From: Escherichia phage HY02
Reading direction: 5' to 3' (one strand)
Sequence record: KM092515
DNA length: 64,000 nt
This document shows, piece after piece, positions 7,237-59,492 of the stretch; within the stretch, counting starts at the first letter, position 1; each line of letters starts with the position of its first letter. The translations under genes and the position numbers were made by a program. The notes beneath the pieces were generated by a model. The model saw only the letters and a program-made list of their open reading frames with translations. It was not told the DNA's origin and made no database searches.

Positions 7237-8022
7237 ATGGGTATTGTAAAAATCATCAATGGTGATATCTTTGCTGCATTTGATAAAGGTAAGTTTGACA
7301 TCATTGGTCATGGTTGTAACTGCATGAACCTAATGGGTGCAGGTATCGCTGACAAGATTTCTAAACTTTACCCAAAAGCATATGAGACCGATACAGAAGT
7401 TTATCTCTATGCAGGTGGTATAGGCCACAAACCCTGTGAGAATTTACTAGGTAATTTCTCTGTAGCACGTTTAAAACAAGGTCGTATAGCTAACCTTTAC
7501 ACTCAGCTTAAGACTGGTAAAGATGCCCGATACAGTGCTTTAGAGTCATCTTTGAAACAGCTTAACAGATACTGTGAAGTTAACCAGTTGAAGAAGGTTG
7601 GTCTACCTATGATTGGTGCAGGTATCGGTGGACTTGACCCTCAAGCTGTCACAGTTATCATCAATCAGGTGATGAAGAGTGTAGATGTTTATCTGTATGT
7701 CTATGAAGGCGAGATGTACCACAAGTTACGCTCAGGTTGGAAGAACTACTGTGAACCAGAATACTTTGCAGGTGTAGCAGTGTTCACGGATAACGCAGTT
7801 ACCCTCTTCAGACGAAGAAAAGGTAAGATACATCAAAGTAACCCTCCGGTTGAAAAGATGTCTCTAGGTAATGCTCTAGTTACCCACCTGTCGAAGAGCA
7901 ATCACAGAATGGCTGTGACATTTGGTAGTGATGCAGAAGCTTATATCTATGCAAGAACTGATGAGGATATCGAGGCAATCTTCTCTTCACCAGAAGTTAC
8001 CTTCTTAGACGCAAAGAACTAA
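7237..8022 (+). CDS. macro-domain (ADP-ribose binding/processing) protein
   Basis: N-terminal GDIF...DIIGHGCNCMNLMGAGIADKI and GLPMIGAGIGG loops resemble macro-domain glycine-rich motifs; C-terminal about 110 aa of unknown fold. Confidence 0.55.
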   Translation: MGIVKIINGDIFAAFDKGKFDIIGHGCNCMNLMGAGIADKISKLYPKAYETDTEVYLYAGGIGHKPCENLLGNFSVARLKQGRIANLYTQLKTGKDARYSALESSLKQLNRYCEVNQLKKVGLPMIGAGIGGLDPQAVTVIINQVMKSVDVYLYVYEGEMYHKLRSGWKNYCEPEYFAGVAVFTDNAVTLFRRRKGKIHQSNPPVEKMSLGNALVTHLSKSNHRMAVTFGSDAEAYIYARTDEDIEAIFSSPEVTFLDAKN

Positions 8023-8087
8023 GAAACTCTGTAGAATATTCACAATAGACTAAGCCTTTCTTATCTGGTAAATTTTTCAGGTAAGGG

Positions 8088-8277
8088 GGGCTTTTTCATT
8101 TCAGGATTGTGCAGGTATATTTCTATAGAGAAATCTGTAGAGAAAATTTTGAACTCCAAAGAGAAAATTCATTTTCAAACTGTGCAGGTAATCTCCAAAG
8201 GGCTTTTTCATTTTCAAAACGTGCAGACCCCGCTCAGGTCGGGCAAGAAAAATCATTTTAGAATCGTGCAGGTAGGT
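8088..8277. repeat. four direct copies of a roughly 22-bp motif TCATTTTCAAANNGTGCAGGTA
   Basis: GTGCAGGTA/GTGCAGACC at 8109, 8182, 8221 and 8266, each preceded by TTTTCATTTT. Confidence 0.6.
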
Positions 8278-8298
8278 TTTTATAGAGAGCCAGACCAA

Positions 8299-8329
8299 CC
8301 CCTCTCCCCCTCTTACTCCCCCTCTCCCC
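8299..8329 (-). repeat. C-rich tract; G-quadruplex-prone on the minus strand
   Basis: CCCCTCTCCCCCTCTTACTCCCCCTCTCCCC gives four G-runs of 4 or more on the complementary strand. Confidence 0.5.
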
Positions 8330-8451
8330 AAAAGTCAAGAGAAAAATTTGTAGCGGATTGAAAAATAATTCTTGATTTGTGTTCTGTTTTGTGGTAGTCG
8401 TGTGCGCCCGTTTCATTACAGTTTCGCCAAAGATATTTTTAAAATTTTTCT

Positions 8452-8480
8452 TGACTCTTTGAACGGGGTTATCTAGTATT
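8452..8480 (+). promoter_or_regulatory. sigma70-like promoter for the small-gene array
   Basis: TTGACT, 17-bp spacer, TAGTAT, immediately before the conserved leader. Confidence 0.4.
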
Positions 8481-8485
8481 TGCAT

Positions 8486-8542
8486 CAACGGGGAGGGAAT
8501 GACCTTCCCCACTAAATAAAGTCCTAAACTGGAGATTCAAAA
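8486..8542 (+). promoter_or_regulatory. conserved 5' leader (type A): stem-loop GGGGAGG-N8-CCTTCCCC, ACTAAATAAAGTCCTAAACTGGAGATTCAAAA, then ATG
   Basis: near-identical copies before ORFs at 8543, 10328, 11198, 12419, 12981, 13578 and 13907. Confidence 0.6.
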
Positions 8543-8923
8543 ATGAAATATCGTGCGCCTAAATTCATCAACAAAGACAACTTTCGTAGCGTACTGGAGA
8601 AGTCACTTGATGAAAATTTCAAAGGTAATGTGATTGTTGTTCACTCGTTCAATTTTAAGTATGATATCAACGGGAATAAAATTAACCATTACACGGCAAC
8701 CATGTTAGATGGTACTCTTTCAAGTGAAAAAACAATTCTACATGCACTTGCTGGGCGTGGTAAAAACCTGATAAGCTGCAATAAGAGACGTTATCAAGGT
8801 GGCGCATATGGTTATGATGATGCTGTTTACCATCTTGAAAATATGGGCTATTCAGTGGAGAAAGCTGGAGCGTCTCAAATAATTGGTAGTGATGGTTATG
8901 TGACAATATTCAAAATTAACTGA
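8543..8923 (+). CDS. hypothetical small early protein
   Basis: ORF preceded by conserved leader with GGAG RBS. Confidence 0.65.
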   Translation: MKYRAPKFINKDNFRSVLEKSLDENFKGNVIVVHSFNFKYDINGNKINHYTATMLDGTLSSEKTILHALAGRGKNLISCNKRRYQGGAYGYDDAVYHLENMGYSVEKAGASQIIGSDGYVTIFKIN

Positions 8924-8937
8924 TAAAGTACTTTACA

Positions 8938-8966
8938 GGGGGCTTATAGTTCGATAAAGTAAGCCC
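8938..8966 (+). other. conserved intergenic hairpin (type B) GGGGCTTA...TAAGCCCC
   Basis: GC-clamped hairpin followed by AGATAAAGAGCTTTACC, not U-rich; four copies with compensatory loop changes. Confidence 0.5.
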
Positions 8967-9011
8967 CAGATAAAGAGCTTTACCACTAAATCCTAAATTG
9001 GAGATTCAAAA

Positions 9012-9302
9012 ATGGCTATTATCAAAAACGTTGTAATTCCTGCAAAAACTCGTGATGACGCTCGCATTATGGCGAAAAAGTTAGGCGGGAAAGTGGTTGA
9101 CAACGGAAAACAATCTGCTGTAAGATGGGGTGTGAAGGCTGATAAACAGTTGAAGCTAAAAAATTCACCAATAAACCTTTTTGCATGTGTAAACACTATC
9201 GGGAAGACAAATGTATACACGAAAAAGGCATATATTAGACGCGTAGTCTTAACATCCCCCATTCGTACAATGAGAGGTTATGCAAAGCTGAAAATTAACT
9301 GA
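9012..9302 (+). CDS. hypothetical small early protein
   Basis: ORF preceded by CCTAAATTGGAGATTCAAAAATG. Confidence 0.6.
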   Translation: MAIIKNVVIPAKTRDDARIMAKKLGGKVVDNGKQSAVRWGVKADKQLKLKNSPINLFACVNTIGKTNVYTKKAYIRRVVLTSPIRTMRGYAKLKIN

Positions 9303-9316
9303 GAAAGTACTTTACA

Positions 9317-9346
9317 GGGGGCTTAAAAGTTGGTATCTTAAGCCCC
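9317..9346 (+). other. conserved intergenic hairpin (type B)
   Basis: GGGGCTTAA...TTAAGCCCC followed by AGATAAAGAGCTTTAC. Confidence 0.5.
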
Positions 9347-9387
9347 AGATAAAGAGCTTTACATAATCCTAAACTGGAGATTCAAAA

Positions 9388-9600
9388 ATGAACATTAATC
9401 AAAAACTGAAAACCGCCTCACAAGTCCTATTCACAGATGATGACTATTTCAATAAAGACCTCACAGGTTTGAAATCTCTTAAAGAGATTAAAGAGCGCAT
9501 GAAAATTTATGGAAAACCTCGGTTAGTTGGTGTATTCTCTAACTGTTATGTTTATCAGCTTAATGGTCATTACAATTTTACGATTACTATTTTATCCTAA
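9388..9600 (+). CDS. hypothetical small early protein
   Basis: ORF preceded by CCTAAACTGGAGATTCAAAAATG. Confidence 0.6.
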   Translation: MNINQKLKTASQVLFTDDDYFNKDLTGLKSLKEIKERMKIYGKPRLVGVFSNCYVYQLNGHYNFTITILS

Positions 9601-9615
9601 ACTGGAGATTCAAAA

Positions 9616-9912
9616 ATGAAATTATCAAATAAAGTCCGTGAAAACCTAAGCAAGTTACTCAACAAAATTGATTTTATCGAGACATCAAGGAATAGTCATG
9701 ATGTTATGGAATGGTTACACGGCAAAATAAAAGGCCGTCGTGTAGTGATTTGCTTATGGAATAGTTGCAGGGAGTATAAAAAACCTGTATTGCAAATTAA
9801 TGTTTATGATGATACTTATAAAAGCCCTGTTAAGTCTGAAAGTGATTTACTAGACTCTTATGAGATAACTGTAAATGGCAAAGTATCACGTAAAGAGGAA
9901 GCACTATGTTAA
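9616..9912 (+). CDS. hypothetical small early protein
   Basis: RBS motif CCTAAACTGGAGATTCAAAAATG overlaps the upstream stop codon. Confidence 0.6.
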   Translation: MKLSNKVRENLSKLLNKIDFIETSRNSHDVMEWLHGKIKGRRVVICLWNSCREYKKPVLQINVYDDTYKSPVKSESDLLDSYEITVNGKVSRKEEALC

Positions 9913-10238
9913 TGATGGGTATCACTGCAATCATCGCCATTATGGCACTATACAAGGCTTATAGCGCCTATAATCTGGCAAGTAAGGCAATCACCCAACA
10001 GGTTGATAATAGCCTTGTAATGAGCTTTCTAGAGCGTTTAAGCGATGAGCAAATAAAGCGGCTAGAAATGAGCTTCAGATTTAAATCGAGAACTTATCAA
10101 ATCAGCGACATTTTCAAAGATGATTTTCAGCTAGTGGATGATTATAATTCTCTGATAAATGCTTTAAATATCAGTGATTTAAAAGATTATCACGCTGTAA
10201 TTGTTCAAGAATTGAGCAAACGAAAACAAAACTGTTGA
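9906..10238 (+). CDS. hypothetical small early protein
   Basis: start overlaps upstream stop (translational coupling); no separate leader. Confidence 0.45.
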   Translation: MLMMGITAIIAIMALYKAYSAYNLASKAITQQVDNSLVMSFLERLSDEQIKRLEMSFRFKSRTYQISDIFKDDFQLVDDYNSLINALNISDLKDYHAVIVQELSKRKQNC

Positions 10239-10263
10239 CACTGATTTTTAGATAGATTAAATT
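10235..10263 (+). promoter_or_regulatory. sigma70-like early promoter
   Basis: TTGACA, 17-bp spacer, TAAATT; identical copy at 11104-11132. Confidence 0.5.
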
Positions 10264-10327
10264 ACACATCAACGGGGAGGCAATAACCTCCCTACTAAAT
10301 AAAGTCCTTAAACTAGGAGATTCAAAA

Positions 10328-10600
10328 ATGTATACTACTAACAACGGTCGTACTTTGAACGTAACACTGCGTCACTATGTGAATGGTGTAATGCACTTTG
10401 ATGATTTACAAGCTGAGCAACATATCTTAGATTGGCAAGTAGCAGGACTCCAAAAAACTGCTACAGGATACGGGAAAAAGATTCCAACTAGTTGGAAAGT
10501 ATACTATGAAGGACGTTTGCGCAGAATTTATCAAGATGTATGCAGTAATAGCGCATCAAGTTACATCATAGTAAAAGGTAAAAAACTGCATTTAGTATAA
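10328..10600 (+). CDS. hypothetical small early protein
   Basis: conserved type A leader upstream. Confidence 0.65.
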   Translation: MYTTNNGRTLNVTLRHYVNGVMHFDDLQAEQHILDWQVAGLQKTATGYGKKIPTSWKVYYEGRLRRIYQDVCSNSASSYIIVKGKKLHLV

Positions 10601-10612
10601 AGTACTTTACAA

Positions 10613-10641
10613 GGGGCTTATAGTTCGATAAAGTAAGCCCC
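10613..10641 (+). other. conserved intergenic hairpin (type B)
   Basis: GGGGCTTA...TAAGCCCC; near-identical to 8938-8966. Confidence 0.5.
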
Positions 10642-10685
10642 AGATAAAGAGCTTTACCACTAAATCCTAAATTGGAGATTCTAAA

Positions 10686-11090
10686 ATGACTATTAATAAT
10701 CGTGAGTTATCAATCTTAAAAGCACGTTTGACTGTCAACCGGATTAATGTTATTACATCATCAGCACCTGATGAGACATTGCACAATATTATCGGGAAGA
10801 TTCAAAGTGTTATCTTAGACGTTGAAAGTGTAAAAAACTCATTGGCTGACGTTGCAGCAGGTATCACGCTAGATGGTGCACAATATGAAATGGCAGACAT
10901 GTTAGGCAAATCAAAGGTAATGAATAAAGAGTTAGATTTGAAAATGTTTAGATTTGCTGTTAAAGTGTGGCTATCTGTCGAGTATGATGCTAATTTTGCA
11001 ATCGCTGATTTCTTTGCCACTTGGTTGCAACGTAATTTGGCAAATCATGATTTTCGTGATATCTGTGATGCAATTTATGCAGAACTCTGA
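10686..11090 (+). CDS. hypothetical small early protein
   Basis: preceded by CCTAAATTGGAGATTCTAAAATG. Confidence 0.6.
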   Translation: MTINNRELSILKARLTVNRINVITSSAPDETLHNIIGKIQSVILDVESVKNSLADVAAGITLDGAQYEMADMLGKSKVMNKELDLKMFRFAVKVWLSVEYDANFAIADFFATWLQRNLANHDFRDICDAIYAEL

Positions 11091-11103
11091 AAAAAAAAAA
11101 CTG

Positions 11104-11132
11104 TTGACACTGATTTTTAGATAGATTAAATT
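11104..11132 (+). promoter_or_regulatory. sigma70-like early promoter (duplicate of 10235-10263)
   Basis: TTGACACTGATTTTTAGATAGATTAAATT repeated verbatim. Confidence 0.5.
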
Positions 11133-11197
11133 ACACATCAACGGGGAGGGAATGACCTTCCCCACTAAGTAAAGTCCTTAAACTAGGAGATTCAAAA

Positions 11198-11401
11198 ATG
11201 GCTATTATTAACGGCTTAAACATTGAAACAACACACATCAAAGACATCAAAGTTGGTGATGTAGTCCTTTCCCACGGCGTAGAGAAAACTGTTACTGCAA
11301 AGGATATTAAAGAGGATTCTTTCATGGGTAGAACTCTCTTCGGTGATTCTTATTGCTTAGGTTATCTTGCAGTTTTAAAAGTTGTCAAAAATAATCGTTA
11401 A
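11198..11401 (+). CDS. hypothetical small early protein
   Basis: conserved type A leader upstream. Confidence 0.65.
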   Translation: MAIINGLNIETTHIKDIKVGDVVLSHGVEKTVTAKDIKEDSFMGRTLFGDSYCLGYLAVLKVVKNNR

Positions 11402-11413
11402 AGTACTTTACAA

Positions 11414-11442
11414 GGGGCTTAAAAGCTGATATCTTAAGCCCC
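11414..11442 (+). other. conserved intergenic hairpin (type B)
   Basis: GGGGCTTAA...CTTAAGCCCC. Confidence 0.5.
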
Positions 11443-11486
11443 AGATAAAGAGCTTTACCACTAAATCCTAAACTGGAGATTCAAAA

Positions 11487-12029
11487 ATGAAATGCTTTCA
11501 CGGTACTACTCAAGAAAACTTCATCAACCTGATTAATAACGGTGATAAACCATCAGGCGCATGGAATTGTTCGGATATGGACGGCAATTTTTACGTGTAT
11601 CCAGAAAATAAAATCTATGGCGACGATGAGGAAGAAATAGCATCAGAAGGTATCCAACAAGCTCTAGGAAATGCCACTATCACCGCAGCTTTCCAGATGA
11701 AAACCCAAAATATTGTTATCTTAGAACTAGATATTCCAGAGGATGAGCTAAATGATGATTATTCTTGTGATAATATGTCGAGTGTAGCAAGTTTTACAGA
11801 GTACTTTGATGTAAATTGGATTAAAAAGGTCTATACAACAGAGTTTAACGCTATGTATTCACCTTTTTGTCTTCCTTCATTGGATAACCCAAATTTAAAC
11901 TATCTTGATGAGTCTCTGGAGCTTCTCGCTAAAAGTGTTCAACATTCAGACAGTATTCAGGTTTTTTGTGACATCATGGATACACTGACAGGAAACATTG
12001 CAGAAGAGGATTTAAAGAGCTTTTTCTAA
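11487..12029 (+). CDS. hypothetical acidic early protein
   Basis: 180-aa ORF preceded by CCTAAACTGGAGATTCAAAAATG. Confidence 0.6.
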   Translation: MKCFHGTTQENFINLINNGDKPSGAWNCSDMDGNFYVYPENKIYGDDEEEIASEGIQQALGNATITAAFQMKTQNIVILELDIPEDELNDDYSCDNMSSVASFTEYFDVNWIKKVYTTEFNAMYSPFCLPSLDNPNLNYLDESLELLAKSVQHSDSIQVFCDIMDTLTGNIAEEDLKSFF

Positions 12030-12061
12030 AAACCTATGCAATCACCTTATAAACACTAATC

Positions 12062-12083
12062 AGCCCCTTGTAGGGGCTTTTAG
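12062..12083 (+). terminator. intrinsic terminator (weak U-tract)
   Basis: AGCCCC-TTGT-AGGGGCT followed by TTTAG. Confidence 0.45.
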
Positions 12084-12095
12084 AGGGCTTAAATC

Positions 12096-12329
12096 ATGTT
12101 GACAACCGTTTATCTCATCCTTTCTATTTGTAATGGTCATTCATGCGATTTTAAAGGGCTTGAGGAGTTTACAGGGAGTAAAGAAAATGCTATTCAAGTT
12201 TGCCAGATAGCAAGGCAAGACTATCCCGCCAGTGATGATATACAATGTTACTTTAAGACAGAAGATAGCGACGGCGTTTATTTTGATAGCGTCGATGGTC
12301 AATATGAAATTATCATTGAAAAAGACTAG
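12096..12329 (+). CDS. hypothetical protein
   Basis: 77-aa ORF; lacks the conserved leader and overlaps a TTGACA motif, so coding status is uncertain. Confidence 0.3.
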   Translation: MLTTVYLILSICNGHSCDFKGLEEFTGSKENAIQVCQIARQDYPASDDIQCYFKTEDSDGVYFDSVDGQYEIIIEKD

Positions 12330-12418
12330 ACAAGCCTGATAAAAATCTGTAAATTGTCAATCAACGGGGAGGGAATGAACTTCCCCACTAAACAAAGTCC
12401 TAAACTGGAGATTCAAAA

Positions 12419-12760
12419 ATGGCTTATGTAACCGTAATTACCGATAAAGCTGACTCATCTTGGTCAACTCAAGTCAGTGATAAGATGTCGCCTATGCAGT
12501 GCCTAAAATACTTTGAGCAGTGGAACAAAGGCGAGGATGTAAGCCCCTTTCAGGTAATGCAAATCATCCATACAGATAACGAAGGGAATAAAACTACCTT
12601 AAACAGTGAATACTACGCAAGCCGTTTTGAAACGAGAAGTAAAACAATGAAGATTTTACGTGAATCCGGCTATTCTCATATTGCCGCGCTAATCTGGGAT
12701 GACCTGCTAAAAAGCCAGCGTATCAGCTATGTAAAACCTGAAAAAATATTCATCAGTTAA
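12419..12760 (+). CDS. hypothetical small early protein
   Basis: conserved type A leader upstream. Confidence 0.65.
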   Translation: MAYVTVITDKADSSWSTQVSDKMSPMQCLKYFEQWNKGEDVSPFQVMQIIHTDNEGNKTTLNSEYYASRFETRSKTMKILRESGYSHIAALIWDDLLKSQRISYVKPEKIFIS

Positions 12761-12980
12761 TCAACAACTTACAAAAAACTTTTAAAAAAGTGTTGACAAC
12801 TCCCCTTGACATTGGTAACTTTGTTCGAGGGGGTTTATCTAAAAGGGATTAACTTAAAAGATTCTTTATAGATAAACTTAAAAAATTGCTTGCAATCAGC
12901 TATCAAAACAAGTAAATTACTAATCAACGGGAAGGCAATAACCTCCCCACTAAATAAAGTCCTAAACTGGAGATTCTAAA

Positions 12981-13511
12981 ATGAACAAATTTCAAGCTAT
13001 CAACTTCATTCGTTCAAATGCTGTAATGTCTAAGCCTGTTAAAGATACCTATGAATTTCGTTGCAATGGTGTACACTTTGCAACCATTACCAAATCAGAA
13101 AACGGGGCTTATTACGTCCATCGTCGTAATGTTTCCACCGTTGTAGTCTCTCACTTTATGCAAGCTGTCGCGGAACTTCTCCCGATGTTTTTAGGTCTTT
13201 ACTTAGATGATTGTAAAAACGTTCACAATCACGTTAAAAACCTTTTAAATGGTTATAAAATGGCTTATGAACGTTCTATCAAGTCCTTGAACAAGTTCTA
13301 TAAAGCACCTGTAAATACCGTTTCAATGGCCTACGGCATAGGTGGCTGGACTGTTAACCTTTCTCTAGTGGAAGAAATCGAGCTTTATGATTTACGTCCT
13401 AGCGGTTACTCTAAGACACTGGGAGAAGGTTTAACGTTCAATATCAAGAACTTAGAAAAAACTTTAAAAGATATTGAAAAAGACATTGACGAGACAATCA
13501 AAAATCTGTAA
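12981..13511 (+). CDS. hypothetical small early protein
   Basis: conserved type A leader upstream. Confidence 0.65.
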   Translation: MNKFQAINFIRSNAVMSKPVKDTYEFRCNGVHFATITKSENGAYYVHRRNVSTVVVSHFMQAVAELLPMFLGLYLDDCKNVHNHVKNLLNGYKMAYERSIKSLNKFYKAPVNTVSMAYGIGGWTVNLSLVEEIELYDLRPSGYSKTLGEGLTFNIKNLEKTLKDIEKDIDETIKNL

Positions 13512-13577
13512 ATTGTCAATCAACGGGGAGGGGATGACCTTCCCCACTAAATAAAGTCCTAAACTGGAGTTATCAAG

Positions 13578-13841
13578 ATGGAAAACGTAGAATTAACCAC
13601 ACTATTGCAAATTGCAACTGACAAAGAAGACGTAGCACTGTTTCACCGCATCGAAAGCGATTTGTTCAATGGTGAAATCATCAAAGAATCTTATGAAGTT
13701 GTCGGATTCAAAGATGGTAAAGCGTTTGGATTCTTTGACCTCGACAAAAGCAACGCGGTTATAAAATATGATGTTTTATCTTGTGAGATTCTTACAAAAT
13801 ACAACGAAAAAAGGCTTGCAACATACGCCAACATGCAGTAA
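13578..13841 (+). CDS. hypothetical small early protein
   Basis: type A leader with variant RBS CTGGAGTTATCAAGATG. Confidence 0.6.
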   Translation: MENVELTTLLQIATDKEDVALFHRIESDLFNGEIIKESYEVVGFKDGKAFGFFDLDKSNAVIKYDVLSCEILTKYNEKRLATYANMQ

Positions 13842-13906
13842 ATTACTAATCAACGGGGAGGGATGGCCTCCCTACTAAATAAAACCTTAAACTAGGAGAT
13901 TCTAAA

Positions 13907-14155
13907 ATGGCTACTATCCGCGCAACTGTTAACGAATTCGGCTTTTGCTCTCTGGATGTTAAATTTGACCTTGTAGGCACTGATAACGCCTTTGAGATGG
14001 TGAAAGGTCTTATCTGTCAGACCATCAAAGACTATAACCCTTCTGATGAGTTCTGGAAAGAAACAAAACAGGAAGTTCTTAAAGAGGGTTATTCTTATCA
14101 CTATTGGGGTGAAAAAATTGTCTCCCTGTACTACGACAAAGAAGGTACTAACTAA
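13907..14155 (+). CDS. hypothetical small early protein
   Basis: conserved type A leader upstream; last gene before the terminator. Confidence 0.6.
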   Translation: MATIRATVNEFGFCSLDVKFDLVGTDNAFEMVKGLICQTIKDYNPSDEFWKETKQEVLKEGYSYHYWGEKIVSLYYDKEGTN

Positions 14156-14195
14156 ACGCCGCAACGGGGCTAAATAGCCCCAGATACCTTTATAC

Positions 14196-14218
14196 AGCCC
14201 CTCACAGGGGCTTTTTTA
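14196..14218 (+). terminator. intrinsic terminator ending the early + strand block
   Basis: AGCCCCT-CACA-GGGGCT followed by TTTTTT; a second hairpin GGGGCTAAATAGCCCC lies at 14166-14181. Confidence 0.7.
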
Positions 14219-14219
14219 C

Positions 14220-15849
14220 GTCTATCCAATCCTTATACAATACCTTTCCTCACCTTTTCAGAATCTTATCAGACCTTAAAAGCAATAACTCTATAGTCTA
14301 CTCTATAGCCTTTTATCAAATCAACTTAAATATAAGCCAATAACCCCAGAAAGGGGATGGCCCATTTAAACGCTCTATAAAGCGCTATAACAGCCTTATC
14401 AACCTAACTTAAGGGATTGCATTAACTCACCCTTAAAAGCTCTTTACAGGGCTTTATAGAGGCTTAAAAGAATCTTATAAGGGTATAAGCTAATAGGTTG
14501 GCTAGTATCTTGTGAATAACTAAACAATCCCCTTGATAGTCACTAAAAAGTATGTTATAGGGGGCTATAAAGTTACTTCAAAGTTACGTGATAGATAGCT
14601 TAAAAGTTACGTAAATGCTAGCCCCCTTAACATTTTCTTAACAATTTCTTAACAATCCCCTACATAGTTATGCTTGTTAGAGACTTGTTAGCCCCTTGTT
14701 AAATCTCTGTTACAACCACGTAAAAGCCTTGTAAGAACCTTTGGCATAGCCTTAAAAGCCCCTGTAAAGCCCTATAAAGAGCTATCCATACAGTTGAGGG
14801 GTAAATACTAGGAAGAGGCTTAAAAGAACTTATAAGGGGCTATAGAGAGCTTTTAAGAGGCATGTTTAAGGAATCACTAAGAAATAAAGGGAACTATAAG
14901 AAAAGAGATAGTGACCATGTTAATAGCTTGTTAAAAAGATTAAACACTTGTTAGAAACTTGTTAATTATCTTAACAAAAATAACTCTTTAAAATTAACTT
15001 GTTAGCTCTTGTTAGTCATCTGTTAAGATTCTGTAAAGCCTATTCAGCACTTGTTAGAAAACTGTTACAGCCTTGTTAGTTCTGTTAAGAACCTGTTAAT
15101 ACCTTTGAAGAGTTGTTAAGAAGATGTGAGAACTGTTAAGAGATTGTTAAGGATATTTTAAAATTTTGCAAAGTACTTGTAAGGGAGCTGTTAAGGGCTA
15201 CCAAGCAGATATACATCTTCTACAGATATTTTTCAGTTCCTTCAAAGACCCTAAAAAATGACTTGATAGCCCTATTTTATAAAAATTTTAAAATTCTGAA
15301 TAATTACCTAGACAGTCTTTTAAAAATACAGGCATAAACAGGCTTATAAGATACCTTGTTAGTACCGTGTTAGACCTTGTGGGGTAAGGTCTGCAAAGAT
15401 ATTCCTGTTAAGTTTGTTAAAACAGTCTATATAGAGGCTTAGTATCCCCTAGTGAACACCTATAGAGGGTAACATAGCTAACCTAATGGGTTACTGTTAA
15501 GTAACACAGATAACCTAGAGATTAAGAGGTGTATAGGAGCTTCTAAGATGGTGTAGAGAGATGGTTAAGGTGATTGTATAGGTTGTTAAGAAGGCTTGTT
15601 AGAGGGCTTGTTAGAAGGGCTATACAGAGGGGCTATTAAGACCACTAGATAGATACTAAGATACTATATAGTACTATATAACTATATATAGAGAGTAAGC
15701 TTAAGAAGGTTGTTAAGAAGGGTAGATATTTTATTCACATATGATGGTGACCCAGAGGTTGGGACAACCGATAAAATTTTATAAAAAATATAAATTTCGT
15801 AAATTTTACTCAATAAAAAGCCCCCAATTAAGGAGGCTCTTAAGATATT
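14220..15849. repeat. ORF-free region with dense short direct repeats (CTTGTTAG / CTGTTAAG family) and an AT-rich CTATATA tract; candidate origin or regulatory hub
   Basis: no ORF over 1.6 kb; more than 25 copies of (C/G)TTGTTA(G/A) and CTGTTAAG, densest at 14930-15200; CTATATA three times at 15661-15695; recurring CTTAAAAG/CTTATAAG/CTATAAAG words at 14340-14870. Confidence 0.6.
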
Positions 15850-16443
15850 TTAAATCAGTGTTTCCAGAACTGTTTTTAATGATGACTTGGTTGTCTGATA
15901 AAAATGAGTGAATCCATTGTTGTTATCGAATATCTGCATCATGATATCATCTCCCTTGATTGGGTACACTCGGATATCATAGTGAAAACCATTAAAGACA
16001 CAAGAACCACTACAGAATGCTCTAAAGTCATCCACTGAGATATACTCTTCATGACCTGTGATTTTTATACAGACGCCTTTACTCGGCCTCTTAGGGTTGA
16101 TATCTTCCATCACAGACATACTCTGCCCACCAAGAGATACCATAGTGACTACTTTACGGTTCTTCTGTCTAAAGTACATCTTAACTTTCTGTAAAGTGTC
16201 TTCATAGAACGGATAAGACTTCTCTACAAAGATTCCTTCTAATGGCTCTTTACCGTTTACAATACCTCTGGTATGACGTACTGAGAAGATAAGTTGCTCT
16301 AGTATGTCAAGGCTTTCTTCGGATAGTGCTTCCCGAATATCATTCCAGTCAAGGACTAGATAGTTGCCTTCAACTTCTTTTAAGTTATCTTTTTCCATAT
16401 CTATCACACCATTATCGTAAAACTTGGTAATCTGGAACAGCAA
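15850..16443 (-). CDS. hypothetical protein
   Basis: 197-aa ORF at the 3' end of the - strand block. Confidence 0.5.
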   Translation of the reverse strand: MLFQITKFYDNGVIDMEKDNLKEVEGNYLVLDWNDIREALSEESLDILEQLIFSVRHTRGIVNGKEPLEGIFVEKSYPFYEDTLQKVKMYFRQKNRKVVTMVSLGGQSMSVMEDINPKRPSKGVCIKITGHEEYISVDDFRAFCSGSCVFNGFHYDIRVYPIKGDDIMMQIFDNNNGFTHFYQTTKSSLKTVLETLI

Positions 16444-36306: not shown

Positions 36307-37413
36307 ATGTTGACTAATTCTGAAAAAAGCAGATTTTTCCTTGCTGACCTGACTGGTGAAGTCCAGTCTATCCCAAATACTTATGGGTATATTTCCAACT
36401 TAGGTCTGTTCCGTTCAGCACCAATCACCCAAACTACTTTCCTGATGGACTTAACTGATTGGGATGTTAGCTTGCTTGATGCGGTAGACCGTGATAGCCG
36501 TAAAGCAGAGACTAGCGCACCTGAACGTGTTCGTCAAATCAGCTTCCCAATGATGTACTTCAAAGAAGTTGAAAGCATTACTCCTGATGAGATTCAGGGT
36601 GTACGTCAGCCAGGCACTGCAAATGAACTGACTACTGAAGCTGTAGTACGTGCTAAGAAGCTGATGAAGATTCGTACCAAGTTCGATATTACTCGTGAGT
36701 TCCTGTTTATGCAAGCTCTGAAGGGTAAAGTTGTTGATGCTCGTGGTACTCTGTATGCTGACCTGTACAAGCAGTTCGACGTTGAGAAGAAGACTATTTA
36801 CTTCGACCTTGACAATCCTAATGCTGACATTGACGCTGCTATTGAAGAACTGCGTATGCACATGGAAGACGAAGCTAAGACTGGCACTGTAATCAACGGT
36901 GAAGAAATTCACGTAGTTGTTGACCGCTTATTCTTCAGCAAACTGGTTAAACATCCTAAGATTCGTGATGCTTATCTTGCACAGCAGACTCCGCTGGCTT
37001 GGCAACAGATTACTGGTTCTCTGAGAACTGGTGGCACTGACGGCGTTCAGGCTCATATGAACACCTTCTACTACGGTGGTGTTAAGTTTGTCCAGTACAA
37101 CGGTAAGTTCAAAGACAAGCGTGGTAAGGTTCACACTCTGGTGAGCATTGATAATGTAGCAGCAACTGTTGGTGTTGGTCATGCCTTCCCTAACGTATCT
37201 ATGCTGGGTGAAGCTAACAACATCTTCGAAGTGGCATATGGTCCATGTCCTAAGATGGGTTATGCAAATACACTTGGTCAGGAACTGTACGTATTCGAAT
37301 ACGAAAAAGACCGTGACGAAGGTATTGACTTCGAAGCTCACTCTTACATGCTGCCATACTGCACACGTCCTCAGTTGCTGGTAGACGTTCGTTCTGACGC
37401 TAAATCAAACTAA
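36307..37413 (+). CDS. major capsid protein
   Basis: 368-aa ORF after protease/scaffold with strong RBS and codon usage suggesting high expression; assigned by gene order. Confidence 0.6.
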   Translation: MLTNSEKSRFFLADLTGEVQSIPNTYGYISNLGLFRSAPITQTTFLMDLTDWDVSLLDAVDRDSRKAETSAPERVRQISFPMMYFKEVESITPDEIQGVRQPGTANELTTEAVVRAKKLMKIRTKFDITREFLFMQALKGKVVDARGTLYADLYKQFDVEKKTIYFDLDNPNADIDAAIEELRMHMEDEAKTGTVINGEEIHVVVDRLFFSKLVKHPKIRDAYLAQQTPLAWQQITGSLRTGGTDGVQAHMNTFYYGGVKFVQYNGKFKDKRGKVHTLVSIDNVAATVGVGHAFPNVSMLGEANNIFEVAYGPCPKMGYANTLGQELYVFEYEKDRDEGIDFEAHSYMLPYCTRPQLLVDVRSDAKSN

Positions 37414-57818: not shown

Positions 57819-58029
57819 AATGACCTCAAAGTTATATTAAATTTTGTATTACATTGAGTATAAAAATAAGCTATAACACCTGACTTGTCAACAGATTTTA
57901 TAGCTTATTTGGCAGATTTTTTATAAGGCTACTGCCATCCTTCCATACCTAACCCAACCAGACCTAACCCCACCGAACCAAACCTTACCTTACTTCACCC
58001 TACCTTATTAAAAGACCCTCTTAAAGACC

Positions 58030-58057
58030 TTTTAAAAAGGAGCCTCCGAAGAGGCTA
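58030..58057 (-). terminator. intrinsic terminator (- strand)
   Basis: AGCCTC-CGAA-GAGGCT hairpin with A-run on the + strand just downstream of gene 58068..58508. Confidence 0.55.
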
Positions 58058-59116: not shown

Positions 59117-59492
59117 TTAGTTGATTGTTAAGTTGTTTGTAAAGAACCCTCAACAGAAGACTCTTTAGAAACTTGGTAGATTTTTAACGTGGCTACTACC
59201 ATCCACCCATGCTTTACCGTACCTGACAGTACAACACTTCAACTTACCCAACCACACCTTACCTTATTAAAAGACCCTCTTAAAGACCTTTTAGAAAGGT
59301 AAGTCTCATTTTAATGTAGCTGAGACTAACTACCCACACCAAACCATAGCATACATCGCATTACCGGACAGAGCCATACTTTACCAGACATCACTTAAAA
59401 ACCCTCTTAGAAGACTCTTAAGTGATGCTGGTGAGTACCCGTCGGTTTATGCTGCTCAGTATACTCACCAAATTTTCTATGTCAACAACTTT

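Follow-up and report, generated by a model that had tools for sequence, protein, structure and literature searches.

A probable hyperplastic array of early-gene cassettes of the promoter-early stem-loop type in the Felix O1-like Escherichia phage HY02

Introduction

What is the role of the highly similar intergenic repeats that separate a series of small, mutually unrelated genes in the DNA of Escherichia phage HY02 (sequence record KM092515)? The stretch analyzed here, referred to as the window, comprises 64,000 nucleotides (nt), and the array in question spans positions 8451-14215 with 14 small ORFan genes, all on the + strand. An earlier note on this DNA had interpreted the repeats as one promoter and stem-loop operator shared by all genes. 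In our analysis two classes of intergenic modules, termed S and H, were distinguished, which have only the leader directly preceding the start codon in common. Taken together with a comparison of related phages, this leads us to regard the region as probably a hyperplastic early-gene array built of cassettes of the promoter-early stem-loop (PeSL) type.

PeSLs have been described for the T4-type phages phi1/RB49, PST/T4 and nt-1/KVP40 (Arbiol et al. 2010, PMC2839356; Comeau et al. 2014, PMC4122927). They consist of a sigma-70 promoter with a stem-loop located between its boxes or after the -10 box, and of a Shine-Dalgarno (SD) sequence and an ATG at the 3' end; the promoter consensus of the PST/T4 elements is TTTACW-N17-TAYWAT (PMC2839356, PMC4122927). 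They are concentrated in front of ORFans in hyperplastic regions, are associated with insertions and deletions, contain G-T pairs in their stems and also occur as degraded copies, and their promoter and attenuator activities as well as the formation of mini-circles were demonstrated experimentally (PMC2839356, PMC4122927). A system of this type is already known, and what is new here is the phage lineage. In the Felix O1 genome paper a 57-bp repeat, which corresponds to the hairpin element of the H module, and the 39-bp promoter repeat are listed as direct repeats without further interpretation (PMC3185647). The elements are mentioned neither in a comparative paper on Felixounavirus nor in the rV5 paper, and literature searches gave no PeSL-like description for Felix O1-like phages.

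Results and Discussion

The S module combines a putative promoter with a hairpin at a fixed distance

Among the 14 open reading frames (ORFs, named here by the position of their start codon; Table 1), seven are preceded by an S module, four by an H module and one (9616) by the leader alone, while two (9906 and 12096) have neither. The ORF list of the earlier note is correct, and its statement that each of about 14 genes carries the same promoter, stem-loop and ribosome-binding site (RBS) applies to the seven genes with an S module, but not to the other seven. According to pattern and repeat scans, all module copies are confined to 8.4-14.2 kb of the window, the other repeat families in the 64 kb being tRNAs and tail-fibre repeats.

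When aligned, the seven S modules show the order A-rich tract, -35 box, 17-bp spacer, -10 box, 4 nt, ATCAAC, hairpin, ACTAAATAAAGT, CCTAAACTGGAGATTCAAAA and ATG. The -35 box has the form TTGACA, TTGACT, TTGACG, TTGCAA or TAGACA and the -10 box reads TAAATT, once TAGTAT; a sigma-70-like pair of boxes at a spacing of N17 was detected in silico in all seven. Both boxes are conserved between the copies and so is nearly every position from the -10 box to the ATG, whereas the 17-bp spacer drifts. Since boxes kept around a drifting spacer are a classic promoter signature, we read the S modules as functional promoters, which are predicted to be strong and to be recognized by the host sigma-70 polymerase. 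The long leader ATCAACGGGGAGG...ACTAAATAAAGTCCTAAACTGGAGATTCAAAAATG, reported previously in front of the ORFs 8543, 10328, 11198, 12419, 12981, 13578 and 13907, was recovered at all seven places (8484, 10268, 11137, 12360, 12923, 13519 and 13849). The scan of the 64 kb gave one additional weak match at 36892, as compared to 0.43 matches expected by chance for a 13-mer with 2 mismatches allowed. Two of the S modules, 10224-10330 and 11093-11200, had been described as identical over about 100 bp. This overstates their similarity, as the exact run covers 53 nt from just upstream of the -35 box through the 5' arm of the hairpin, and 6 differences, mainly in the loop and the 3' arm, are present in 108 columns.

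The hairpin of the S module was collected in 53 distinct versions from about 30 related genomes, 48 of which begin 10 nt after the -10 box. Their stems comprise 3-9 bp and their loops 4-9 nt, GAAA and GAGA being among the latter, and the pairs at depths 4-7 occur as GC, AU, CG, GU and UA. In Mooglevirus, GGGGC...GCCCC and GGGC...GCCC replace GGGGAGG...CCTTCCCC. The earlier observation that pairing is retained while the loop varies therefore holds, first in 42 and then in 53 distinct variants. Because G.U pairs are frequent and the minus strand folds less well than the plus strand, the hairpin is best understood as an RNA structure of the coding strand.

From the usual distance of 7 nt to the -10 box, transcripts would start within ATCAAC, 2-4 nt before the stem, so that the S hairpin would lie within a few (about 4) nt of the 5' end. 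A 5'-terminal stem-loop in the 5' untranslated region of the E. coli ompA transcript acts as an mRNA stabilizer. The S hairpin may shield the mRNA from 5'-end-dependent decay, and it possibly also attenuates read-through from upstream. As an alternative, the S hairpin could be a cis-acting antitermination signal, similar to nut/boxB or put sites, which lets the polymerase pass the hairpins and terminators of the array. Its promoter-proximal position and the GNRA-like loops GAAA and GAGA in Mooglevirus-type copies would agree with such a signal, as would the observation of the Felix O1 authors that read-through of many terminators is unexplained (PMC3185647). The variable length (4-9 nt) and sequence of the loop, however, fit poorly to a specific protein-binding site, and neither a boxA-like partner nor an N-like protein was seen, although no search for either was made. 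Nor does expression of the array depend on long-range read-through, every cassette being equipped with a predicted promoter, and we consider antitermination very improbable.

The H module is a two-tier hairpin with promoter-like bases

The H modules contain a 58-nt element that folds into a two-tier hairpin and is present in four copies in the window, with 0 expected. It has the layout AAAGTACTTTACA-GGGGCTTA-loop-TAAGCCCC-AGATAAAGAGCTTTA and is followed by the standard leader. The genes preceded by it (9012, 9388, 10686 and 11487) are four of the five for which a shorter leader had been noted, the fifth being 9616; this leader is indeed present in front of all five, but the H element had been missed at four of them.

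For the analysis of its structure, 83 copies (82 distinct) from Felixounavirus, Mooglevirus and one Erwinia Kolesnikvirus were aligned. The hairpin consists of 11 lower-stem positions with one constant mismatch, a 3x3 internal loop and an upper stem of 9-11 bp, the lower stem being built from a duplicated GATAAAGNNCTTTAC. In the 82 distinct copies 93.3% of the cells are paired, as compared to 31-57% when the partners are slid against each other. Compensatory changes from GC to UA are found at the lower-stem pair 4-57 in 11 sequences and at one upper-stem pair in 5, and U.G pairs, which would be C.A mismatches on the opposite strand, are present in 41 and 72 of the 82 sequences. The z-scores of the fold range from -2.5 to -3.3, and the internal-loop bases CA / AGA are invariant. 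As judged from this alignment the covariation is genuine, with few independent events behind it.

In silico, the same element has the appearance of a promoter: 81 of the 82 distinct copies contain TTTACA, a spacing of 16-18 nt (17 in 70 copies) and TAnnnT. The -10 region occurs as 15 different hexamers, with -12 T, -11 A and -7 T constant and the three inner positions free, and the upper stem is located between -35 and -10. As a hairpin alone fails to predict two invariant bases in the middle of its loop, the H module most likely doubles as promoter and hairpin. The promoter is predicted to be of the T4-early-like form TTTACA-N17-TAnnnT, with its -35 box supplied by the invariant CTTTACA and its start at CAGATAAAG. 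The hairpin would form only in RNA originating from upstream promoters, where it could act as an attenuator or as a processing or 3'-stabilizing structure that insulates neighbouring cassettes. In 286 phage records, all of them Ounavirinae and 29 Erwinia phages included, the H element has 1440 occurrences; it is also retained in a Kolesnikvirus, where identity of the flanking macro-domain protein is down to 43%.

The structure of the H element also resembles the processing sites of phage T7. In the T7 early region, which is transcribed by the host RNA polymerase from three promoters at the left end, the RNase III sites are intergenic hairpins of about two helical turns with an internal loop, which lie between stop codon and following RBS. 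H elements might accordingly be RNase III-type processing sites and not promoters, so that a few polycistronic RNAs from the S promoters would be cut at H as in T7, leaving a 3' hairpin that stabilizes the upstream message and freeing the next RBS. The H hairpin, with its 11-position lower stem, 3x3 internal loop and 9-11-bp upper stem, likewise amounts to about two helical turns between stop codon and leader; the change from GC to UA at pair 4-57 is not needed for a promoter, and H modules always lie within units headed by an S promoter. On the other hand, there is no sequence similarity to the T7 sites, the array is predicted to have one promoter per gene, and the promoter-like invariant bases, namely the fixed -12 T and -11 A at 17 nt from the invariant TTTACA within a drifting loop, are not predicted by a pure RNase III substrate. 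We therefore doubt that H is a processing site instead of a promoter, but processing and promoter roles can coexist. Two further possibilities were discarded. Intrinsic termination at the S and H hairpins was rejected as unlikely, as no T run follows either of them. A DNA operator of two AAAGNNCTTT palindromes around the H promoter was set aside after the variant AGATTTCTTT...AAAGAGATTT was found, which damages a different half-site in each palindrome while the arms stay complementary and thus favours a hairpin.

Both modules end in the same leader

S and H modules both end in a leader of about 35 nt, ACTAAAT-(AAAGT)-CCTAAACTGGAGATTCAAAAATG, which would provide uniform and efficient initiation of translation. 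The 23-mer CCTAAACTGGAGATTCAAAAATG has 8 matches in the 64 kb (0.00 expected), and its two-insertion variant CCTTAAACTAGGAGATTC accounts for 3 further copies. At 303 junctions the SD context reads CCTAAACTGGAG in 160, CCTAAATTGGAG in 36 and CCTTAAACTAGGAG in 107 cases, without intermediates. The T and A insertions of CCTTAAACTAGGAG always occur together and would lengthen, by one U-A pair, a small CCU/AGG stem that reaches the SD sequence, and the leaders of Erwinia phages retain CCUU/AAGG or CCUC/GAGG complementarity. The variants of this SD stem may point to weak regulation by the stem, or may simply be two alleles that were multiplied by copying.

These features bear on the idea of a common post-transcriptional operator, in which hairpin and leader are the site of one trans-acting factor and are kept identical by recognition and not by recombination. 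A phage translational repressor or endoribonuclease like T4 RegA/RegB, in the case of RegB with GGAG as the cleavage site, or a host RNase, could in this way shut off the early messages jointly or set their stability. This possibility is supported by the near invariance of the unpaired leader bases and the SD context GGAG at about 300 junctions from three genera, by the invariant CA / AGA of the H internal loop, by the restriction of the leader to the forms CCTAAA(C/T)TGGAG (196 copies) and CCTTAAACTAGGAG (107), as if a U-A pair had been added to the stem touching the SD, and by the complementarity retained in Erwinia phages. However, the stem-loop itself cannot be the shared operator because S and H hairpins differ, the SD stem of 3-4 bp is marginal in energy, the two leader alleles may go back to a single event spread by copying, and no candidate factor was identified, a search for RegB homologues not having been made. 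An operator would also leave the mosaic at the level of cassettes unexplained. We regard it as unlikely to account for the array, being aware that it is compatible with PeSL-type cassettes and not exclusive of them. The single operator proposed in the earlier note is not supported in that form, the two module classes having only the leader in common. The PeSL model, which takes self-contained promoter/stem-loop/SD cassettes to double as recombination homology, accounts for the pattern of the array at least equally well.

The similarity of the modules extends into the first codons of the genes. ATGGCTATTAT, encoding M-A-I-I, opens both 9012 and 11198, and 13907 and 10686 begin with ATGGCTACTAT and ATGACTATTAA, respectively; the proteins are unrelated. 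The shared codons could reflect selection on the codons of the initiation region, or recombination junctions located just inside the genes.

Cassette content varies between relatives

By megablast of positions 8300-14300 the phage group is Felixounavirus (Felix O1-like myovirus), Ounavirinae. The 256 matching phage records are essentially all Felix O1-like myoviruses; the best match has 96% coverage and 89.5% identity, the matches are split into 2-7 pieces, and in annotated relatives every gene of the region is labelled "hypothetical protein". For a comparison of gene content, the region downstream of the macro-domain gene was taken from 30 genomes and its ORFs were clustered. Gene order is largely kept in Felixounavirus and Mooglevirus, with whole cassettes being present or absent; the variable ones are x1, x2, x3, x6-x9 and x11 (labels of our analysis) and, in the window, 9012, 9388, 11198 and 13578. 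An Erwinia phage shares several families with these genera, arranged in another order, and degraded half-modules are found in Mooglevirus, e.g. ATCAA joined to GCCCACTTCC. Cassette content, whose comparison across related phages had been suggested as a check, thus differs between genomes.

The mosaic is also apparent at the level of single genes. Orthologues carry differing leader variants and even differing module types, depending on the neighbouring gene, and the best-matching genome switches from gene to gene. Five cassettes occur as alleles of two classes, with nucleotide identities of about 90-95% and 64-79%, respectively, which combine freely; for 9012 and 13907 all four combinations exist. 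At 11487 and 13907, identity is high through the module, collapses just past the ATG and recovers at the next junction. The 9388 cassette is present in only 4 Felixounavirus records, and its protein has homologues with 55-58% amino acid identity in about 168 unrelated 150-kb myoviruses of the Phapecoctavirus type. Since the modules form near-identical islands of 60-100 bp between unrelated genes, we propose that they serve as homology for insertion, deletion, replacement and reassortment of cassettes, which would take place between co-infecting relatives.

Alternatively, the repeats could be functionless leftovers of tandem duplication or gene conversion. Pairs of near-identical copies (10224-10330 and 11093-11200, 12341-12422 and 13500-13581) and the general similarity of copies within a genome are what such an origin would leave behind. 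The 14 proteins, however, are mutually unrelated, each forming its own family at >=30% identity and 60% coverage, and the repeats cover intergenic regions only, with conserved pairing and with promoter boxes that are conserved while their spacers vary. Furthermore, the elements persist in genera whose flanking proteins are 43-65% identical. This makes leftovers an extremely improbable explanation. Tandem duplication of the genes themselves was rejected, as the array proteins do not cluster together.

Relation to known systems and timing of expression

The array is read as PeSL-type because its features coincide point by point with those of published PeSLs. The H promoter, TTTACA-N17-TAnnnT, equals the PST/T4 consensus, and a G/C-rich stem-loop is placed between -35 and -10 in H or just after -10 in S. 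Reading the sequence further, a stop codon of the upstream gene lies in the AT-rich 5' edge of the modules, and SD and ATG lie at the 3' edge. The modules cluster in a plastic region before ORFans, have G-T pairs in their stems, and show cassette indels and replacements between close relatives as well as degraded half-elements. There are also differences. The lineage is Ounavirinae and not T4-like, which concerns the place of first description and not the mechanism. Two rigid module types share an almost invariant leader of about 35 nt, the S hairpin is held at a fixed distance from the -10 box and probably forms the 5' end of its own mRNA, a second stem lies below the upper one in the H hairpin, and the elements are conserved at the nucleotide level across three genera. 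Finally, the activities and mini-circles of PeSLs were shown by experiment, whereas the modules described here were identified by sequence analysis.

A similar arrangement was seen in the early array of the Phapecoctavirus phiWec188, where each small ORF is preceded by TTGACA-N17-TAAACT/TAAGAT, 10-11 nt, a G/C-rich hairpin with loops including AAUGGU, an A/G-rich SD and the ATG; one of its ORFs encodes a 58% identical homologue of the 9388 protein. This phage belongs to an unrelated subfamily (Stephanstirmvirinae) and has other leader and SD sequences, and no H-type element was found in the 2.6 kb read (1-2604). One might go further and suppose that the leader, with its 5' hairpin of fixed position carrying GAAUGA/CAAUAA-type loops, its ACUAAAU spacer and its SD stem, is a specific RNA operator recognized by a factor of the phage or the host, which protects or jointly silences early messages, and that a grammar of promoter plus 5' hairpin is common to unrelated coliphages exchanging cassettes (Felixounavirus, Phapecoctavirus, T4-like). 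We offer this combined proposal as a speculation that is rather unlikely to be correct.

For the expression of PeSL-type cassettes we envisage transcription to be initiated by the host RNA polymerase at every S and H promoter shortly after infection. Early timing is plausible and partly supported by reverse transcription PCR (RT-PCR) on the homologous array of Felix O1, in which ORFs 16, 20, 21 and 22, i.e. four of the seven genes tested, were maximal 5 min after infection (PMC3185647).

Several points weigh against an array of PeSL-type early cassettes. In the same RT-PCR analysis, ORFs 17, 19 and 23 (three of seven tested) were placed at 25 min (PMC3185647), and literature searches gave no transcript-mapping study of any Felix O1-like phage. 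The scan with the promoter consensus is unspecific in AT-rich DNA, with 28 matches as compared to 20.8 +/- 5.2 in shuffles. In the H element, pairs changed on both sides number 2 versus 1.3 in shuffles; the covariation rests on few events because the copies are related by descent and copying, and part of the promoter-like conservation could belong to the hairpin, as the -7 T is a stem base and the -35 box overlaps the lower stem. Classical intrinsic termination is unlikely because no U tract follows the S or H hairpin. With respect to recombination, the breakpoint in 9012 (relative to JK55) is located about 120 nt inside the coding sequence and outside any module. Moreover, unpaired bases of the leader and the internal loop are conserved across three genera beyond what a generic promoter or hairpin needs, and this excess of nucleotide conservation may point to a specific binding factor.

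If our reading is correct, the PeSL idea, developed for T4-like phages, also covers the Felix O1 subfamily and, as far as the glimpse of phiWec188 goes, Phapecoctavirus. For virulent coliphages in general, this suggests a route to the gain and exchange of early accessory genes, among which host-takeover and anti-defence functions are typically found. Our reading would also explain the repeats listed without interpretation in the Felix O1 genome paper, and does not overturn current understanding. In Felix O1-like phages, which find use in the typing of Salmonella and in biocontrol, the modules mark where variation in gene content is to be expected; they could also serve as natural landing sites and ready expression parts for engineering.

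Proteins encoded by the array

The description of the locus as a modular array of small ORFans without recognizable motifs is confirmed: none of the 14 proteins has a match in Pfam, and all of them belong to PHROGs families of unknown function. A sequence search of the PDB with four proteins (those of ORFs 8543, 10686 and 12981 included) gave no relative. Structure prediction, suggested earlier for each small protein, was run for the 11487 protein (180 amino acids (aa)) only, in which H5-G6-T7 are conserved at >=90% and Y36/Y38 and E80 are invariant. The model is of low confidence (predicted local distance difference test score, pLDDT, 59) and shows a weak ADP-ribosyltransferase-like fold, which we consider a lead rather than a finding. 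A role of the array proteins in host takeover or anti-defence is a guess, for which this modelled fold is the sole hint.

Layout and surroundings of the array

The features of the array are compiled in Table 1. Translation of 9616 and 9906 is probably coupled because start and stop overlap.

Table 1. Positions of modules, ORFs and terminator-like hairpins of the array in the window
Feature	Position	Strand	Details
S module 1	8451-8545	+	-35 TTGACT 8451-8456; -10 TAGTAT 8474-8479; ATCAAC 8484-8489; hairpin 8490-8510; leader/SD/ATG 8511-8545
ORF, 126 aa, ORFan, phrog_4495	8543-8923	+	
H module 1	8925-9014	+	hairpin 8925-8982; TTTACA 8932-8937, N17, TAAAGT 8955-8960; leader to ATG 9012
H module 1 stems	8925-8982	+	lower AAAGTACTTTA/TAAAGAGCTTT, upper GGGGCTTA/TAAGCCCC
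ORF, 96 aa, ORFan; two allele classes in genus	9012-9302	+	
H module 2	9304-9390	+	hairpin 9304-9361; TTTACA 9311-9316, N17, TATCTT 9334-9339; ATG 9388
ORF, 70 aa, rare cassette	9388-9600	+	flanked by identical 27-nt leader copies 9365-9391, 9593-9619
Leader-only junction	9593-9618	+	stop codon of upstream ORF inside CCTAAACTGGAGATTCAAAAATG
ORF, 98 aa	9616-9912	+	leader only upstream
ORF, 110 aa	9906-10238	+	start overlaps stop of 9616 ORF; no module between
S module 2	10235-10330	+	TTGACA 10235-10240; TAAATT 10258-10263; hairpin 10274-10293; leader variant CCTTAAACTAGGAG; ATG 10328
ORF, 90 aa, ORFan	10328-10600	+	
H module 3	10599-10688	+	hairpin 10599-10656; TTTACA 10606-10611, N17, TAAAGT 10629-10634; ATG 10686
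ORF, 134 aa, ORFan	10686-11090	+	
S module 3	11104-11200	+	TTGACA 11104-11109; TAAATT 11127-11132; hairpin 11143-11163; ATG 11198
ORF, 67 aa, ORFan; two allele classes	11198-11401	+	
H module 4	11400-11489	+	hairpin 11400-11457; TTTACA 11407-11412, N17, TATCTT 11430-11435; ATG 11487
ORF, 180 aa; two allele classes	11487-12029	+	
Terminator-like hairpin CAGCCCCTTGTAGGGGCTTTT, short T run only	12062-12081	+	
ORF, 77 aa, own non-standard RBS	12096-12329	+	downstream of terminator-like hairpin 12062
S module 4	12327-12421	+	TAGACA 12327-12332; TAAATT 12350-12355; hairpin 12366-12386; ATG 12419
ORF, 113 aa, ORFan	12419-12760	+	
S module 5	12890-12983	+	TTGCAA 12890-12895; TAAATT 12913-12918; hairpin 12929-12948, one mismatch; ATG 12981
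ORF, 176 aa, ORFan	12981-13511	+	
S module 6	13486-13580	+	TTGACG 13486-13491; TAAATT 13509-13514; hairpin 13525-13545; divergent SD spacer; ATG 13578
ORF, 87 aa; cassette missing in many relatives	13578-13841	+	
S module 7	13816-13909	+	TTGCAA 13816-13821; TAAATT 13839-13844; hairpin 13855-13873; ATG 13907
ORF, 82 aa, last array gene; two allele classes	13907-14155	+	
Intrinsic-terminator-like hairpin and T run	14195-14215	+	closes array

At its 5' side the array is preceded by a macro-domain gene (7237-8022, Pfam Macro) and the terminator of this gene. At the other end the closing hairpin is followed by about 1.7 kb of non-coding DNA and then by a block of minus-strand genes. A scan for terminator-like sites gave 8052-8093, 12062-12078 and 14196-14212 only. 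In an Rfam covariance search of 7900-16000 nothing scored above threshold; the sole match was a sub-threshold type III hammerhead at 14011-14074, inside the last ORF (22.8 bits as compared to a gathering score of 48.5 bits, E = 0.31), which most likely occurs by chance.

Downstream of the macro-gene terminator and ahead of the first array promoter, 4-5 direct repeats of CTTTTTCATTTTCAAAACGTGCAGGT are found at 8088-8271 with a spacing of about 40-45 nt. Repeats of this family also occur in the Erwinia Kolesnikvirus, at about 9830-10000 of its locus, and could represent iterons or regulator sites. Next to these repeats, a C/T-rich tract ccctctccccctcttactccccctctcccc (8300-8380) coincides with the start or end of several independent assemblies: two IMG/VR contigs stop at the equivalent of 8319, one of them continuing into a Nextera adapter, and in GenBank TH10 the two termini lie at 8307 (start) and 8380 (end), an overlap of 74 identical bp. 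The tract, about 130 bp ahead of the first early promoter, may be a physical end of the genome; entry of the DNA into the cell would then begin with the array.

The 12419 ORF is separated from the following S promoter by a conserved non-coding stretch (12760-12890) that Mooglevirus has as well. It contains TTGACA-N17-TAACTT at 12793-12821 together with an inverted repeat, CCCC...GGGGG, is not followed by an ORF, and could be a small RNA or a degraded cassette. The non-coding DNA downstream of the array (14216-15850) is rich in TGTTAAGA / CTTGTTA and CTTTATAAAG-type short repeats, and a similar region exists in the Erwinia phage; possible roles are those of an origin, of a packaging region or of a region for the binding of regulators. 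Further away, 57957-58040 and 59216-59299 form an intergenic-looking repeat of two copies, which are 77% identical over 84 nt and end in ACCTTACCTTATTAAAAGACCCTCTTAAAGACCTTTTAAAAAGG.

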